Positions 1,043-15,594 of a stretch of 64,000 bases of DNA are shown piece by piece (positions within the stretch are counted from its first letter, which is position 1; every line of letters begins with the position of its first letter). The translations under genes were made by a program, and so were the position numbers. The notes beneath the pieces were generated by a model, which saw only the letters and a list, made by a program, of their open reading frames with translations, searched no databases and was not told where the DNA came from. This stretch comes from Dehalococcoidia bacterium (lineage in GTDB: Bacteria; Chloroflexota; Dehalococcoidia; Bin125), in contig OY820591.1 of assembly GCA_963555985.3 (NCBI GenBank), positions 2,784,001-2,848,000 of the forward strand, written 5' to 3'.

Positions 1043-1197
1043 CCTTTGCAAAGGTCTCCTGTGGGCGCGTTGGAGCTTGGGGGGGCGGATCGCGCGATGC
1101 AAGGTCGGCGGTACGACCAGCTTGGGAGTGGCTTCATACTTGGTTGCTTCGAGATTCCCGCCTGCGCGGGAATGACGGAAATGGGGGTTTGCGCAGG
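1043..1197 (-). repeat. Composite repeat containing a REP (GTCATTCCCGC...GCGGGAATCTC); uninterrupted counterpart of the IS30 target site
   Basis: Reverse complement ccatttccgtcattcccgcgcaggcgggaatctcgaagca...tggtcgtaccgcc...gcatcgcgcgatccg aligns with 13611-13640 joined to 14684-14753. Confidence 0.85.
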
Positions 1198-8848: not shown

Positions 8849-9816
8849 CCGACGATGCCGTGAACCACCAGCGCTCGATCCTGGAACGCGCCCGCGATTG
8901 GCTGATTCCGCCCTTGCCGCCGGAGGGGGAAGAGGCGGCGCTTGCGCCTGAGCAGTTGCGTCGCGCGGTGCGGCGGATTGAGATCCGGGCGCGGAGATTG
9001 CTCCGCGATCAGCTGGCCGGTCAGTATGCGGCCGCTTTTCGCGGTCGCGGGATCGAGTTCGCCGAACTGCGGCCGTATGCGCCGGGGGACGAGGTGCGCA
9101 GCATCGACTGGAAGGCGACCGCGCGGCTGCGCCAGCCGGTGGTGCGGCGCTACGTTGAGGAACGCGAGCAGACCGTGCTGCTGCTGGTCGATCTGAGCGG
9201 CTCGGCCGGGTACGCCGCGAGTGGGCCGTCGGTCGCCAATCGCGCGATCGAGATTGCGGGCGTGCTCGGCTTTGCGGCTGCTGCGGCCAACGATCTGGTT
9301 GGGGCGGTCGCGTTCTCGAACCAGATCGACTTCACGATTCCGCCGGCCAAAGGCTCGCAGCATGTGCTGCGGATCGTGCGCGATCTGCTTGCTCAACCGG
9401 TGGGAGGGAGGACCGAGCTGGCCCGTGCCTTCCAACACGCGGGACGGCTGATGCGGCGGCGCGGGATCGTGATCATCATCGGCGACTTCATCGCGGTGCA
9501 TCCCGATCACGTCTGGGAACCGAGCCTGAGCCAGCTCGCCTTGCGGCATGATGTGGTGGCGGTCTGCGTGCGCGATCCGGAGGAGTCGCGGCTGCCGGCT
9601 GCGCCGCTGGCGACCTGGAGCGGGGCAGAGCGCGGCGATACGGTGCTGGCCGACGAAGCGACGACCGCACTCCAGCGCCGGCGGCTGCGCGAGGATCGGG
9701 ATGAGACTGTCGCTCGCCTGCGCCGCTGCGGCTGCGACGTGATTGCGCTCTCCACGACCGACGACTATCTGCCTCCGCTCACCCGCCTCTTCTACGAGCG
9801 CCGCCAACGACCATGA
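8845..9816 (+). CDS. DUF58 domain (vWA-like) protein
   Basis: GRGIEFAELRPYAPGDEVRSIDWKATAR; follows moxR. Confidence 0.9.
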   Translation: MTDDAVNHQRSILERARDWLIPPLPPEGEEAALAPEQLRRAVRRIEIRARRLLRDQLAGQYAAAFRGRGIEFAELRPYAPGDEVRSIDWKATARLRQPVVRRYVEEREQTVLLLVDLSGSAGYAASGPSVANRAIEIAGVLGFAAAAANDLVGAVAFSNQIDFTIPPAKGSQHVLRIVRDLLAQPVGGRTELARAFQHAGRLMRRRGIVIIIGDFIAVHPDHVWEPSLSQLALRHDVVAVCVRDPEESRLPAAPLATWSGAERGDTVLADEATTALQRRRLREDRDETVARLRRCGCDVIALSTTDDYLPPLTRLFYERRQRP

Positions 9817-10688
9817 CTCGCGCCCTGTTCCTCAGTCTCTGTCTGCTGCTCGTGTTCTCTGTAGTCGCCCCTGCTGCGGCGCAGACGCCGCCCAGCGCCA
9901 GCGTCGTCGTTACGCCTGTTGATTCGCTCACCGTCGGCGATCCGGTGACGATCACCGTCACGATCACGCACGACGCGGAGACTCGCGTCGTGTTGCAGCC
10001 CGCCCTCACGCCGATGGGAGAGATGGATCCGGCCGTCCCGGAGATGGTCGCGGTCTCGCCCACCGAGACGGCCTTGACCTACGAAACTCGCGCGTTCAAG
10101 AGTGCGCGTTTCGTGATTGAATTGCCGCCAATCCCGCTCGAACGCGATGGTCAGCGGCTCGAACCCGTCAACGTCGATCCGATCCTGGTCACGGTGGTGA
10201 GCGTGCTCTCGTCAGTCACGGAACCGCGCCCGCTGACTCCGCCCGATCTGCTCGAAGCGCAGGAGCGGAACTTCGCGCCCTGGATCGTGGCGATCATCGG
10301 GATCGGCGTCGGATTCATCGCTGCGCGGCTGTTGCGGATGCGTAGGCGTTCGCAGCGCCCTGCAGAACAGCTATCGGAGATTGACGCGCCGCAGTGGGCG
10401 TTGCCCGAGTTTGATCCCTCGCTACCGCCCGCCGAACAGTGCCGGCAATTGGCGCAGGCGGTGCGCGAGCGGCTAGCGGCGGAATGGTCGCTGCCGGCGC
10501 GCTCGCTGACCACTGCCGAGTTGCCGAGAGCATTGGCGGCGGCGGGAGCGCCGGCTGCCACTGTCCAGCAGGTGCGCAATCTGTTGCAGGAGTGCGATCG
10601 GGTGCAGTATGCGGGTCGTGCGCCGGCTTCCGAGCGTCTGCGCGGCTATCACGAGCTGGCGGCGGCGATCATCGCGCAGGCTCGGTGA
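9813..10688 (+). CDS. Signal peptide/TM protein of a Bat-like operon
   Basis: N-terminal signal peptide, TVGDPVT, internal TM segment, C-terminal LQECDRVQYA; operon position. Confidence 0.7.
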   Translation: MTRALFLSLCLLLVFSVVAPAAAQTPPSASVVVTPVDSLTVGDPVTITVTITHDAETRVVLQPALTPMGEMDPAVPEMVAVSPTETALTYETRAFKSARFVIELPPIPLERDGQRLEPVNVDPILVTVVSVLSSVTEPRPLTPPDLLEAQERNFAPWIVAIIGIGVGFIAARLLRMRRRSQRPAEQLSEIDAPQWALPEFDPSLPPAEQCRQLAQAVRERLAAEWSLPARSLTTAELPRALAAAGAPAATVQQVRNLLQECDRVQYAGRAPASERLRGYHELAAAIIAQAR

Positions 10689-10701
10689 GGCGGAGAGTGC
10701 C

Positions 10702-11658
10702 ATGCAGCTTGAAGACCCCGCCTTGCTCGCGCTCTTCGCAGTGGTTCCGCTCTATCTCTGGGTGCTGGTTCGGGTGGGGCGGTTGCCGCGTCCTCGCTAT
10801 GCGTTGCCGCAGCTTGCGGGTGCGCCGCCGGATTCGGCGCAGCGGGGCTGGCGGCTGCGGCTGCTGCCCTGGCTGCCTGCGATTCGGGTGATCGCAGTCG
10901 TGTTGATCATCATCGCCATGGCCCGGCCCCAGGCGACGCAGGTCGAAGCCGTGCGGCCTGCCGAAGGCATCGACATCGTGCTCGTGATCGACACCTCAAG
11001 CTCGATGACCACGACTTACCTCTCGCAGAACGAGACCCGGATCGAGGCTGCGCGCCGGGTGGCCCGCGAGTTCGTCTCGCAGCGCGTCGAGGATCGCGTC
11101 GGGTTGGTCATGTTTCAGCGCCGCAGTTTGGTGCTGAGCCCGCTCACGCTCGACCTGGATGCGATTGACGCGATGATCGAGACCAGCGTGCGCAGCGGCT
11201 ATATACCCGACGGCACTGCCCTCGGCGTCGCGCTGGCCGAAGCCGTCGACCTGCTGCGCGACTCCGACGCGGCCAGCCGGATCGTCGTCGCCCTGACCGA
11301 CGGCGAGAACAACGTGCCCGACATCACTACCAATCAGGCCGCTTCGATCGCTCGTGCGCTCGGCGTGCGCATCTACATGATCGGCCTACCGACGCTGGGC
11401 GGGCGGACTAGCGTGGGACCGAGCGAACTCAGCCTGGTCTACATCGCCGACGAGACCGGCGGCGTCTACTTCCGCGCCGAAGACGCCAACGAACTGGCCG
11501 AGGCGTATGACCACATCAGCCAGCTTGAACGCGAGCGTGTGGGCGAAGAAACCCTGCTGACCACACGCGAGCTGGCTCCGCTGCTGCTGATTCCGGCGGG
11601 GCTGCTGATCCTGCTCGAACTGGCGCTGCGCGGCAGCTGGTGGCGGCGAGCTCCGTAA
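10702..11658 (+). CDS. BatA-like vWA domain membrane protein
   Basis: AMARPQ, GIDIVLVIDTSSSM (MIDAS), GTALG, LTDGENN. Confidence 0.9.
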   Translation: MQLEDPALLALFAVVPLYLWVLVRVGRLPRPRYALPQLAGAPPDSAQRGWRLRLLPWLPAIRVIAVVLIIIAMARPQATQVEAVRPAEGIDIVLVIDTSSSMTTTYLSQNETRIEAARRVAREFVSQRVEDRVGLVMFQRRSLVLSPLTLDLDAIDAMIETSVRSGYIPDGTALGVALAEAVDLLRDSDAASRIVVALTDGENNVPDITTNQAASIARALGVRIYMIGLPTLGGRTSVGPSELSLVYIADETGGVYFRAEDANELAEAYDHISQLERERVGEETLLTTRELAPLLLIPAGLLILLELALRGSWWRRAP

Positions 11659-13532
11659 TGGCCTGGGGAGCGCCGGAAGCGCTGGCCGCGCTCGTACTTG
11701 CGCCGATCGCGTTGGCGGCGGTCTGGTGGCTCTGGCGCTGGCGGCGCGTGCATCGGATTGCGACGCGAGCGCGAGTGATCGGCGAGCGTCGGGGGAACCG
11801 TCTTGCGTACGCGCTGATCGGGCTGAGCCTGATCCTGCTCGCGCTGGCGGCTGCGCGACCGCAGTGGGGCGCAACCGAGCAGGCGCTCGAGCTCTCCGAG
11901 TTCGCCGTGGTGATCGCGCTCGATGTCTCGCAGAGCATGGCGGCTGAGGATGTCACGCCCAGCCGCTTTGCCGCGGCCCAGGCGGAAGTTCGCCGCCTGG
12001 TCGACGCGCGGCGCGGCGACCGGATCGGACTCGTGATCTTCGCGGGACAGCCATTCCTGCGTTTCCCGCTCACTCGTGATCACGCGAGCGCGCTGGCGGT
12101 GCTCGATGCGCTACAGCCCGGTGAGGCGCTTGCGCCGCCCGGCTCGAATATCGCGGCCGCGATCGAGACCGCCCGCGCGACGCTGGCACGAGAGGAAGCT
12201 CCGGGCGTGATCGTGGTCGTCAGCGACGGCGAGACCCACAGCGGCGATGCGGTCTCAGCGGCGGCGGCCGCTTGGGAGGACGGCACACAGGTCTTCACGG
12301 TTGGAGTCGGCACGGCGGACGGAGAGAACGTGCCGATCGGCGGCGGCCTGACCGGGCGTCCACGCGAGTTCAAGATCGACGCGCGCAGCGGACGGCCAGT
12401 GGTCTCGCGGCTTGATGCGGAGTCGCTGCGTGCGATCGCCGAGACAGGCGGCGGGCGCTACATCGAGCTGCGCCGTCCCGGCTCGATGACGGCGATGAAC
12501 GCGGACTTGGCCGCGCTGGAGCTCTCGCGTGAGGTGGCCGAGGTGGAGTCGGCGCTGCACGAGCAGTACCGCTGGTTCGCGCTGCTGGCGCTACTGGCAC
12601 TAATCGGCGCGAGCGCCGTGCGACTGTTGGCTCACGGAGGCTGGGCGCGGAATCGTGCGGTGCGTCGTGCCGCGCGGGTGTTGGGGCTGACGGCGCTTGT
12701 CGCGTCGGCCGCGGCGGTCAGCGGTTGTCAAGCTTCGGCTGTCGAGCGCGCTAATACCGAGGGCGCCGAACACTATGCCGCTGGTCGCTACGGGGAAGCG
12801 CTGGAATCCTGGCGTGAGGCGCAGCGGGCGGATCAGCGCGACGGCGCGATCGATCCGCGTCTGCACCTGAACGCCGGGCGGGCGCTGCACCAGTTGGGCC
12901 AATACGAGCGGGCCGAAACCGAGTCGCTGGCGGCGCTGCGCTCGACCGATCCGGCGCAGCGGGCGTTGGCTTGGTTCCATACGGGCAATCACCGCTGGGC
13001 CAACGAAGATCCGCTCGGAGCCAGAGCTGCCTACATCGAGGCCTTGCGTGAACAACCCGAGCTGCTCGACGCGAAGATCAACCTCGAACTGGTCAACCTA
13101 CTGCTCGATCAGGTGGAATCGGCGCAGTCCGAGCAGGAGGGCGCCGCACTCGCGGCTGAGTCGGAGCAATCCGCTGAAGCGGAGGGGCCTGGACTGAGCG
13201 CCGAGGCAGAGCAAACCGGGCAGGCGGCAGCTCCGGCGGAGGGCGAGCCGGAGTCCGCTGAGTCAGGATCGTCGGCCGCGGCTGAGAGTGAGGCTGATAC
13301 AGAGGGACAGAACGCCGGCGCGCCGACCAATCCCACGTTCGCCGAAGAAGATCGCTCCGACGCGCGGCGCGAAGCATTAGCCGAGCTCCAGGAGGCGTTG
13401 GACGCGCTGCCGCTGGAGGAGGCGAGCCTGGAGCAGGCCTTGGCAGTGCTGGATGCGCTGAGGGCGGTACCCGGTGATCGCCTGGCGGCGGGATCGTTGC
13501 CGACCGCGGAGTCCGGTGTGGCGGATTGGTAG
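11658..13532 (+). CDS. BatB-like vWA protein fused to TPR (BatC-like) domain and acidic tail
   Basis: AAARPQWG, DVSQSM, SDGE, TPR repeats (NAGRALHQLGQY, AKINLEL); TAATG overlap with the upstream gene. Confidence 0.85.
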   Translation: MAWGAPEALAALVLAPIALAAVWWLWRWRRVHRIATRARVIGERRGNRLAYALIGLSLILLALAAARPQWGATEQALELSEFAVVIALDVSQSMAAEDVTPSRFAAAQAEVRRLVDARRGDRIGLVIFAGQPFLRFPLTRDHASALAVLDALQPGEALAPPGSNIAAAIETARATLAREEAPGVIVVVSDGETHSGDAVSAAAAAWEDGTQVFTVGVGTADGENVPIGGGLTGRPREFKIDARSGRPVVSRLDAESLRAIAETGGGRYIELRRPGSMTAMNADLAALELSREVAEVESALHEQYRWFALLALLALIGASAVRLLAHGGWARNRAVRRAARVLGLTALVASAAAVSGCQASAVERANTEGAEHYAAGRYGEALESWREAQRADQRDGAIDPRLHLNAGRALHQLGQYERAETESLAALRSTDPAQRALAWFHTGNHRWANEDPLGARAAYIEALREQPELLDAKINLELVNLLLDQVESAQSEQEGAALAAESEQSAEAEGPGLSAEAEQTGQAAAPAEGEPESAESGSSAAAESEADTEGQNAGAPTNPTFAEEDRSDARREALAELQEALDALPLEEASLEQALAVLDALRAVPGDRLAAGSLPTAESGVADW

Positions 13533-13619
13533 GGGATGTTGGGATCCTGTCTGCGGAGACCGTTGCAAAAGTCCCCTCCCCTCTCCCCCTTGGAGACCTG
13601 CGCATAATCCCCATTTCCG

Positions 13620-14636
13620 TCATTCCCGCGAAAGCGGGAAGGTGGGTTCACATTGCAACTGCAACAACTGCCGACCGAAGACTTCGGCCGGGGAGAGGTA
13701 GTCGAGGCACTGGCGGGGGGTGTTGTTGTACAACTGCAGCACTTCGATCAAACGCGCGAGGCTGAGTTGGGCGAGGTCGAGCCGGCGCGGCAGGACCCGG
13801 CGCAGGCGTCCGATCGCATTCTCGATCCCGCCCTTCTGCCAGGGCGCGTAGGGGTCGCAGAAGAAGGTCTCCACGCCCAGCCGGTGCAGTTCGTAGTGGC
13901 GGGCGAACTCGGTCCCGTTGTCGAACGCGACCGTGCGCCGCAGGGCGGGCGGCCAGGCGCGGAGCAGGCTGAGCAGCAGGCGCGCGACCGGAGCGGCCGC
14001 CTTGCCCGCCACGGGCAAGCCCACGAGCAGCCGCGAGGAGCGCTCGTGCAGCATCAGCAGGAGCGGACCGCCGCGCCCGAAGAGCATCAGGTCGGCCTCC
14101 CAGTGACCGGCTTCGAGCCGCCCGGCGGCCGCCGCCGGGCGCTCGCTCAGGGGCCGCCGCAGTTGGATGCGCTCGACCGAACTGCCGCCTTTGCGCCCGC
14201 GCCAACCGCGTTTCGCCTTGCGCCGCGGCAGATACTGGCGCCAACCGCCGCCGCGGCCGGGCTTGGCCCGCGAGGCTTGGGCGTAGATGAAGCGGTAGAT
14301 GCTCTCGTGCGAGATCACCGGCGCGCCCGCCTCGCGCGCCAGCCGGCCTGCGACCTGTTGCGGCGAGAGCCCGCGGGCCAACTCGCGCAGCACCCGCGCG
14401 CGCAGCTGATCGTCGCGTTCCAGCCGCGAACCGCGCCAGCGCCGCGCCTGGGCCTGTTGCTGGGCGTAGTCGGGACGGTAGCCGTCGCGCGCCGTGTTGC
14501 GTTTCAGCTCTCGAGCAATCGTCGATGGCGAGCGATCCAGAGCTGCAGCGATCTGCCGGATCGAGCGCCCCTCGGCCTGTAAGCGGGCAACCGCGCATCG
14601 CTCCGCCAGGTCCAACTGCGTGTACTGCGCGCCCAT
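13620..14636 (-). CDS. IS30 family transposase
   Basis: HTH SIRQIAAALDRSPSTIARELKRN, SHESIY, GHWEAD, FDNGTEF, PWQKGGIEN, NNTPR. Confidence 0.97.
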   Translation of the reverse strand: MGAQYTQLDLAERCAVARLQAEGRSIRQIAAALDRSPSTIARELKRNTARDGYRPDYAQQQAQARRWRGSRLERDDQLRARVLRELARGLSPQQVAGRLAREAGAPVISHESIYRFIYAQASRAKPGRGGGWRQYLPRRKAKRGWRGRKGGSSVERIQLRRPLSERPAAAAGRLEAGHWEADLMLFGRGGPLLLMLHERSSRLLVGLPVAGKAAAPVARLLLSLLRAWPPALRRTVAFDNGTEFARHYELHRLGVETFFCDPYAPWQKGGIENAIGRLRRVLPRRLDLAQLSLARLIEVLQLYNNTPRQCLDYLSPAEVFGRQLLQLQCEPTFPLSRE

Positions 14637-14680
14637 GGGCTCACCTCAATCATCTGTCGCACTTCGTCTGTGAGACTAGG
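13641..14680 (-). mobile_element. IS30-family insertion sequence (~1040 bp) inserted in a REP, 3-bp target duplication GAA
   Basis: Imperfect terminal IRs (ggtgggttcacattgcaactgcaaca vs reverse complement cctagtctcacagacgaagtgcgaca); GAA at 13638-13640 and 14681-14683; removal restores a REP like 1151-1176. Confidence 0.85.
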
Positions 14681-14790
14681 GAATCTCGAAGCACCCCAAG
14701 TCCGAAGCCATCTCCACATCTGGTCGTACCGCCAACCCGCATCGCGCGATCCGTTCCCTCCCCTCTCCATAAACCACAATACACAACCCC

Positions 14791-14829
14791 GAACACCAAT
14801 TCACTATAGTCACCACAGAACCCATGTAT
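14791..14829 (+). promoter_or_regulatory. Putative promoter: GAAC-ACCA-ATTC, -10 TATAGT (14805-14810), GAAC-CCAT-GTAT
   Basis: Two near-consensus LexA-type boxes flank a -10 upstream of RBS gaaagga and ATG 14851. Confidence 0.55.
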
Positions 14830-14850
14830 CACTACCTGAAAGGACTACCC

Positions 14851-15594
14851 ATGCAGATCCACCCCGCCCGCCGCCGCCGCGCGCTCCGCGTCCACTACCT
14901 CCGACAGCGCGGCCACTCGCTGCGCAAGATCGGCGAACAACTCGGCCTCTCCCACACCACCGTCCGCGACGACCTCCAACTGCTCGAAGCCCACTGGAGC
15001 AGCATCGCCGCCCCGGCCGCCGACGATCTCCTGCTCGAATCCCTGCAACTGCTCCAGTTCCGGCTCGCCCTCGCCACGCGCGACGACGAAGTCGCCCGCC
15101 TCGCCGACCACCTCACCCCGGTCGAGTACCTCCGCGCCCGCGACGCCCAGGACGCCCAGCTCACCGCCCTCGTCCGCGAGATCCGGCGCACCGTCGGCGA
15201 GGTCCACCGCCGCGCCGAGCAGCGCCCCGACCAACCCGGCCTCCAGGCCGAAGAGTCGCCGACCCCGGCCGAAACTCCCCAACCTTCCACAGCTTTACAG
15301 CCCGAATCGACGATCTCCAGTGCAGAGCGTGAGATCGTCGAAATTCCGGCCCCGCAGGAAAAATTTCTTCCAACTCCGTCCAACTCCCCGAGCCGCCCGC
15401 ACACGACGCTCTGCTCAGCGAAGTCGTCGACCGCTTCCCCCAGCTCCAAGGCCAGTCGGAGGAGCACATCCTCGAATTCCTCGACCAATTCACCAGCCCC
15501 AACGAGGAGCACACCCAAATCCAGACCGCAGCCGCCGGCTAACTCCCATCTCCTCCCCGTGATCGATCTCCCCCTTGAGGAGACCTGCGCCTAA
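14851..15594 (+). CDS. N-terminal HTH protein of unknown function; probable -1 frameshift near 15360 (alternative end 15542)
   Basis: GHSLRKIGEQLGLSHTTVRDDL HTH; RBS gaaagga; -1 frame gives the more protein-like tail DALLSEVVDRFPQLQGQSEEHILEFLDQF. Confidence 0.7.
   Translation: MQIHPARRRRALRVHYLRQRGHSLRKIGEQLGLSHTTVRDDLQLLEAHWSSIAAPAADDLLLESLQLLQFRLALATRDDEVARLADHLTPVEYLRARDAQDAQLTALVREIRRTVGEVHRRAEQRPDQPGLQAEESPTPAETPQPSTALQPESTISSAEREIVEIPAPQEKFLPTPSNSPSRPHTTLCSAKSSTASPSSKASRRSTSSNSSTNSPAPTRSTPKSRPQPPANSHLLPVIDLPLEETCA

Follow-up and report, generated by a model that had tools for sequence, protein, structure and literature searches.

Insertion sequences of the IS30 family are about 1-1.2 kb long and contain one long reading frame between imperfect terminal inverted repeats of 20-30 bp. 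IS30 of E. coli and IS1655 of Neisseria meningitidis are like the element described here in having a single DDE transposase with an N-terminal helix-turn-helix, a length of about 1 kb, imperfect ends and a target duplication of 2-3 bp, and both prefer nearly palindromic targets. The pathway of IS30, i.e. copy-out-paste-in via a circle or dimer with abutted ends, and the hot spots of the element have been described (PMC9333248). In the survey of Tobes and Pareja, no more than 2 of 13 and 2 of 6 copies of IS1655 adjoined REPs (PMC1525189). The REP-targeting elements of that survey are IS1397 and ISKpn1 (IS3 family), ISPpu9, ISPpu10 and ISPa11 (IS110) and ISRm22 (IS4); as in the present case, the copies lie at one REP position and the flanks suffice to reconstruct the REP, which for every copy of an element was termed a 'type 1 association' (PMC1525189). 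The families named in the survey are IS3, IS110, IS4, IS256 and IS5, and IS30 is absent from them (PMC1525189).

Stop codons supplied by the target have been reported for IS870 and ISMt1 (CTAG), for ISLxc2/ISLxx4 of the IS481 family (NCTAGN), for ISPsp10 (TA to TAA) and for IS1239 (variable flank), and likewise for IS1547 and IS1110 (PMC13630536, PMC2516522, PMC4133298). In these elements the transposase frame leaves the element and is closed by host sequence, as it is here. The repeats at our locus are in turn like the CGTC-1 REPs, to which dRS3 of Neisseria belongs and which combine a CGTC tag with an 8-bp stem beginning with AT and a loop of 4 nt, frequently followed by a CCA tail (PMC3733652). 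CGTC-1 REPs have the tag at one end only, reach a high copy number and are for the most part extragenic. Di Nocera et al. (2013) described CGTC repeats as having no dedicated transposase and few, fortuitous associations with transposase genes, and named five phyla that contain them, Chloroflexota and Nitrospirota not being among these (PMC3733652). A search of the published literature, specialist IS databases aside, yielded no account of an IS30-family insertion into REPs or of a stop codon supplied by a REP.

The element and the repeat that it interrupts

The window, a stretch of 64,000 nucleotides from the genome of a Dehalococcoidia bacterium, contains an IS30-family insertion sequence of 1040 bp at 13641..14680 with the transposase on the minus strand; its limits are the ends common to ten near-identical copies in the genome, which show 0-1 differences each. 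The transposase scored 217.2 bits with the NCBIfam IS30 model NF033563 (cut-off 80), while the runner-up family, IS481, gave 50.8 bits with a cut-off of 224. Alignment with NF033563 stopped at residue 309 of 338. Pfam HTH_38 matched residues 5-47 (E = 3.5e-15), corresponding to an N-terminal helix-turn-helix. The DDE triad reads D182-(56)-D239-(32)-E272, and all three residues were invariant in an alignment of 20 sequences; this spacing fits the IS30-family signature D-(54-61)-D-(33)-E (PMC2516522). The terminal inverted repeats are imperfect, with 17 of 30 positions identical between the right repeat (IRR, 13641..13670, minus), which also codes for the last transposase residues and contains a TTGCAA hexamer, and the left repeat (IRL, 14651..14680, minus), which begins with CCTAGTCT. 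The single long frame of the element extends from an ATG at IS position 45, preceded by GAGGTGA, to the element end. A target duplication of 3 bp was observed, with GAA at 13638-13640 and again at 14681-14683. By its model match, helix-turn-helix, DDE triad, size and ends, the 1040-bp element with its 3-bp duplication can be assigned to the IS30 family on sequence features.

On the plus strand the order at the site is CGTC-ATTCCCGC-GAAA-GCGGGAA, IS, GAA-T, which places the insertion in the second arm of a hairpin. The left part of the split REP covers 13618..13640 (plus) and comprises the CGTC tag (13618-13621), the arm ATTCCCGC, the loop GAAA and the arm GCGGGAA including the first GAA. The second GAA of the duplication (14681..14683, plus) was read directly from the sequence, and is followed by the rest of the repeat at 14684..14760 (plus), i.e. 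the last stem base, the tail and a longer accompanying module, as defined by alignment with paralogues and with contig C8. A preliminary description of this DNA had placed the element at 13641-14680 inside a REP and had claimed that its removal together with one GAA restores the repeat. This was borne out, since in silico deletion yielded the stem-loop ATTCCCGC-GAAA-GCGGGAAT with a stem of 8 bp that starts with AT and a loop of 4 nt, and the restored site had 143 matches in the genome, of which 36 ran uninterrupted across the junction, including the paralogue at about 1085..1190 on the minus strand. The hairpin forms part of a longer repeat unit of about 135 bases (13578-13640 and 14684-14760 in the window, plus 36 other places in the genome), reminiscent of the mosaic blocks of repeats known to surround dRS3 in Neisseria. 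The IS is located between a VWA/TPR gene (11640-13532) and a small frame (14824-15594) with weak helix-turn-helix matches; the stop codon of the VWA/TPR gene is about 85 bases before the hairpin tag, and the transposase reads towards the end of this gene.

The transposase frame (13620..14636, minus) has 338 codons, of which codons 1-332 are in the IS, while codons 333-338 (FPLSRE) and the stop codon are in the REP. Direct reading of the window copy confirmed the earlier statement that the transposase has no internal stop codon, reads through the inverted repeat into FPLSRE and ends at the TGA at 13622-13620: the right end of the IS is wholly coding and contains no stop in frame. The TGA (13620..13622, minus) is target-supplied; two of its bases are the final two of the CGTC tag, and the third is the first base of the stem. 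In the direction of the transposase the tag reads TGAC and is referred to as the foot of the hairpin below. The stretch from the IS end to the foot TGA consists of 18 bases of hairpin, and the insertion leaves a 7-bp hairpin intact immediately after the final codon of the IS. This hairpin persists in the fold predicted for a 70-nt stretch at the RNA 3' end (-21.8 kcal/mol).

The genome has a size of 3.33 Mb in 11 contigs (96% complete, 7.5% contamination) and contains about 151 footed hairpins, 142 of which are unoccupied. A looser hairpin pattern gave 140 matches, as against 0 for a reversed-pattern control. In this genome, all 99 strict hairpins had the foot on exactly one side and none had it on both, and the orientation of an insertion is therefore well defined. 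By its tag, its 8-bp stem starting with AT, its 4-nt loop and its copy number of 140-151, the target would be classed as a CGTC-1 REP. The tails of the occupied REPs were of the CCA type in six of nine cases and CTC in three, the window site being one of the latter.

Site and orientation of insertion in this and other genomes

Nine of the ten copies were inserted at the same REP nucleotide and in the same orientation, with the arrangement ...GATT(C/T) / IS / TTCNNGC-N4-GCNNGAA-TGAC in the direction of the transposase, and the foot TGA closed the frame in 9/10 copies. The stems used by this transposase were TTCCCGC, TTCCAGC and TTCTCGC, with tails of the TGGA and the GAGA type. Two of the REP copies (G000:C1:1954870-1955909 and C1:259917-260956) had TTT as left flank and TTC as right flank, i.e. 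no identical duplication. The tenth copy was found in unrelated DNA with AAG on both sides, and its frame runs to 408 codons; a frame of 398 codons spans the restored site of this copy, and a flanking frame of 351 aa had no Pfam match. The AAG duplication indicates that the duplication is 3 bp long and that the mobile unit does not contain the hairpin. The preliminary description, which had preferred 3 bp to a possible 5 bp (gggaa), was correct in this respect. It had also proposed an alignment of the flanks of all copies as a check on targeting; the same REP position and orientation was recovered for nine of them and not for the one in unrelated DNA, so that in this genome a type 1 association in the sense of 100% of copies at one REP position is replaced by 9/10.

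Contig C8 (12.3 kb) was colinear with window positions 9000-13640 (97.8% identity) and 14679-15371 (91% identity). At the junction it carries the whole hairpin, with a different hairpin loop, and no IS; it is an empty-site allele or a duplicate. Because of the 7.5% contamination of the assembly, a co-assembled strain is the likely source of C8. The duplication of window 9000-15410 in C8 suggests that the assembly probably mixes two strains, or else that it contains a large duplication. Miniature derivatives with both IS ends were not found in the genome, where the left end was confined to the ten copies. A 22-nt look-alike of the right end was observed at G000:C1:1747681-1747702, not beside a hairpin, and is probably due to chance or an old relic. 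A Y1 transposase was not found in this genome either (96% complete). In four public read sets, of seven covering part of the stretch, the contigs broke at the IS ends (about 13630-13641 and 14680-14685) and none bridged the empty site or a circle junction, such breaks being uninformative either way on circles or polymorphic insertions. By the cumulative GC skew of C1, which has its minimum at 0.27 Mb and its maximum at 3.04 Mb and departs from a regular two-arm profile, four copies would be co-directional with replication and six head-on.

Among 41 related genomes searched, five, this genome counted, contained the transposase at E <= 1e-30. The four copies in G022 (84% identity) were identical to each other and all located in a hairpin at the same position, and in G019 (about 60% identity) all seven were located in a TTCCTGC hairpin and ended at the TGA. 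The six copies in G007 (about 62% identity) were likewise all found in hairpins at the REP position, and none of them ended at the foot TGA. Five of these are copies of one element in front of a hairpin with a 6-nt loop, which puts the TGA out of frame, one of them also having a CGAC foot; the sixth is a second element with a CGAC foot. Their frames have 341, 363, 395, 405, 430 and 477 codons. Differences among the five copies amount to 0-2 of 1037 bases, and this near-identity indicates a recent spread without a borrowed stop. All copies within a genome were thus at one REP position, as in a type 1 association, in G022 (4/4), G019 (7/7) and G007 (6/6). G018 contained only a broken remnant of the transposase, and at E <= 1e-30 the transposase was not found in the REP-rich relatives G014 (122 hairpins), G029 (113) and G032 (68). 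In G019, six of the seven copies (L020, L024, L028, L031, L034, L036) match the transposase from residue 66 on only and have the same upstream sequence, which may be explained by a defect common to them, by a frameshift or by the spread of a shorter variant. G019 also contains about 1546 hairpins of the TTCCTGC type, many in tandem arrays with a spacing of 36-44 bases (e.g. G019:C1 102401-102774 and 46352-46603).

For more distant relatives, species-representative genomes were scanned and the best 80 of 559 loci were analysed; 79 of them, from 36 genomes, could be anchored, and the 80th was a copy of G022, also with hairpin and TGA. Neither the loci of a single genome nor those of related genomes count as independent observations here. 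The frame was open across the IS end in 79/79 anchored loci (best 80 of 559), with a premature stop further upstream in four. In 61 of the 79 loci (best 80 of 559) the IS end was immediately followed by a hairpin with no more than one mismatch, and 32 of the 36 genomes had at least one such copy. Among the 61, 56 had a TGAC foot and a stop six codons on, and five had a CGAC foot and read through. The remaining anchored loci comprised four with two mismatches and 14 below the criterion, some of these with partial hairpins; site specificity is therefore strong and not absolute, 14/79 distant loci lying outside a clean hairpin. Counting all loci, the stop was exactly six codons past the IS end in 65/79 (best 80 of 559). 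The duplication was identical at 57 of the 61 hairpin sites in other genomes, and non-hairpin loci elsewhere had matching 3-bp duplications too. With nine of ten copies here, 4/4, 7/7 and 6/6 in the relatives and 61/79 distant loci (best 80 of 559), the view of the preliminary description that this is a REP-specialised IS30 element was upheld.

The target consensus of the 61 sites on the transposase strand was c-TGGA / TNC / CNGC-NTNC-GCNGG-NA-TGAC-G. The positions of the tag were invariant or nearly so, making it the most conserved part of the target. Stem sequences differed from one genome to another as well as inside single genomes, the changes being compensatory, and the point of insertion did not shift. 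The complement of this consensus is the CGTC-1 repeat of Di Nocera et al. (PMC3733652). By database labels the hosts include Dehalococcoidia and other Chloroflexota, Nitrospira and Nitrospirales (Nitrospirota), Bradyrhizobium, Pseudolabrys and a Hyphomonadaceae genome (Alphaproteobacteria), Oleiharenicola, a genus of Verrucomicrobiota, and Binatia. The CGTC-type hairpins in genomes of Chloroflexota, Nitrospirota and Binatia are outside the five phyla named in PMC3733652.

The proteins were in agreement with the loci. In the 120 best homologous protein clusters, lengths were mostly 335-336 aa with scattered longer ones, and 117 could be anchored on a conserved ...CEST. The tail after ...CEST had exactly six residues in 102/117 anchored homologues. 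Tail residues 2 and 5 were P/R in 80, L/Q in 10 and R/P in 7, i.e. in 97 of the 102. These pairs derive from complementary codons, a stem base pair having changed on both sides, and the tail is therefore hairpin DNA read as protein. All 15 longer homologues showed the same kind of tail first and then W, R or Y at the position of the stop. Among representatives of 50%-identity clusters, the lowest identity at which hairpin-type tails were still seen was about 43-46%. Two plasmid IS30 outgroups (about 40% identity) had their own TAA or TAG inside the element, an estimated 33-75 bases from its end, with ends placed only by a 14-of-20 repeat match. In a plasmid collection of 114 records all matches were below 60% identity and none belonged, by identity, to the clade with hairpin tails. 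Many distant representatives of the IS30 family (P0132-P0270, 35-47% identity) ended in ...VALQT, ...VALEM or ...CCTS with the last one or two residues variable, and in other IS30 branches too the gene may stop at the element end or shortly beyond it.

Mechanism and role of the borrowed stop codon

Taken together, the element is very probably an intact, recently active member of a large IS30-family clade that lands in CGTC-tagged REP hairpins, its borrowed stop codon being a by-product of site specificity and not something that activity depends on. Movement would, as in IS30, be by copy-out-paste-in. The element inserts into the hairpin arm away from the tag, with duplication of the three bases TNC, and in a fixed orientation in which the transposase gene points into the hairpin. 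Translation would run through the 18 bases of hairpin, and with a 4-nt loop and a TGAC tag it would stop at the TGA, leaving a six-residue tail that mirrors the local hairpin. On this view the target has taken over the supply of the stop because it hardly ever differs from one insertion to the next. As to how the transposase recognizes the hairpin, no other part of the target is as conserved as the tag, which most probably has a role in recognition. Orientation was kept in G007 where no stop was gained, which places the asymmetry in target recognition and not in selection for a stop.

The right end may have more than one function. With a spacer of 2-3 bp, right end and left end would form TTGCAA-N16/17-TAGTCT across a circle junction. 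This layout would correspond to the junction promoter described for the IS3, IS21 and IS30 families (PMC12288879). The right end could thus serve as binding site, possible -35 element and coding sequence at once, and this triple role may be why there is no stop in it.

In addition, the hairpin over the stop could be a working 3' module that ends or stabilises the message, or slows termination and thereby keeps the amount of transposase low, and could have been kept for that reason. The hairpin is intact just after the final IS codon and is retained in the predicted fold, the geometry is constant across the clade, and REPs are described as influencing mRNA stability and termination (PMC3733652). 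Site-specific insertion alone, however, would give the same geometry, and its constancy is no sign of selection. Such a function, which would add to the by-product explanation, is conceivable and rather doubtful.

The preliminary description had gone further and concluded that correct termination requires oriented insertion at this REP position, from which it would follow that only copies at this position and in this orientation make a working transposase and that specificity is thereby enforced. Several observations agree with this: no examined member of the clade had a stop at the IS end and 65/79 loci had theirs exactly six codons beyond it (both best 80 of 559), the six-residue tail was present in 102/117 homologues, and the frame of the one copy outside a REP in this genome extends to 408 codons. 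The conclusion was nevertheless not sustained. All six G007 copies are in hairpins and none ends at the foot TGA, yet five are nearly identical, a sign of recent spread; the five sites with a CGAC foot read through; and orientation was kept where no stop was gained. Also, the NCBIfam IS30 model ends at 309/338, leaving the tail outside the conserved core. IS1239 is an IS30-family element, the family not being named in the text of its source paper. It is reported to be expressed with variable flank-encoded C-termini in five of six copies tested (PMC13630536). Strict dependence on the REP is therefore improbable. The long-tailed proteins of G007 may be less active, or another copy may have supplied the enzyme, and a need for the borrowed stop is not established by the present finding, which limits its meaning in this respect.

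A more far-reaching reading is that the clade recognizes the CGTC hairpin as structure plus tag and hands its 3' end over to the repeat, which would provide both the stop and a hairpin that ends or throttles the message, and that it could be the missing enzyme that maintains or moves CGTC repeats. The compensating stem changes at an unchanged insertion point would speak for a structure being read, and the link to CGTC repeats, for which no mobilising enzyme is known, for a role in maintaining or moving them. We consider this speculative and hardly likely to apply in full.

It might also be supposed that the hairpin belongs to the element or was spread by it, the REPs being footprints, solo ends or miniature derivatives of the IS30 clade. 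CGTC-type REPs are reported to lack a dedicated transposase (PMC3733652), no Y1 transposase was found in this genome (96% complete), and apart from this IS no transposase was seen physically joined to hairpins here. The mobile unit, however, excludes the hairpin, as is evident from the AAG duplication of the non-REP copy, the empty site in C8 and the REP-rich relatives without a match to this transposase. Non-hairpin copies had clean 3-bp duplications and no hairpin halves, the empty-site allele has the whole hairpin, 142 of about 151 hairpins are unoccupied and no miniature derivative with both IS ends was found. This origin of the REPs is close to refuted. Chance was rejected as a cause, with nine of ten copies at one nucleotide of about 151 hairpins in one orientation and a reversed control of 0 versus 140, as were an assembly artefact and a conserved FPLSRE peptide, the tail residues following complementary stem codons.

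Comparison with known systems

With regard to the CGTC repeats, the clade links them to a transposase, the first such link found in the literature searched. It also accounts for the variable annotated lengths of the transposase (335-552 aa), which are explained by a frame end that depends on the flank. As a clean natural system, it could be used to study how a DDE transposase locates a hairpin repeat with single-nucleotide precision, and whether by sequence or by structure.

Compared with the REP-targeting elements known from other families, the clade would add a sixth REP-targeting IS family. A stop codon derived from the REP is not reported for the REP-targeting elements of the survey by Tobes and Pareja, the term 'stop codon' having no occurrence in that paper (PMC1525189). 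In most elements with target-supplied stops the stop arises where element and target meet, inside the duplication or next to it, whereas here it is 18 bases away, across a hairpin, in the conserved tag of a repeat. In IS1239 the position of the stop is variable and follows a 1-bp deletion. Unlike IS30 and IS1655, the element described here has an abundant genomic hairpin repeat as its target and inserts in one arm and not at the centre of symmetry, its orientation is fixed, and its gene has no stop inside the element. REP-targeted insertion and a target-supplied stop are each known in other IS families, never together in the literature searched; here they are joined, in a widespread clade of the IS30 family found in at least five phylum-level groups by database labels.
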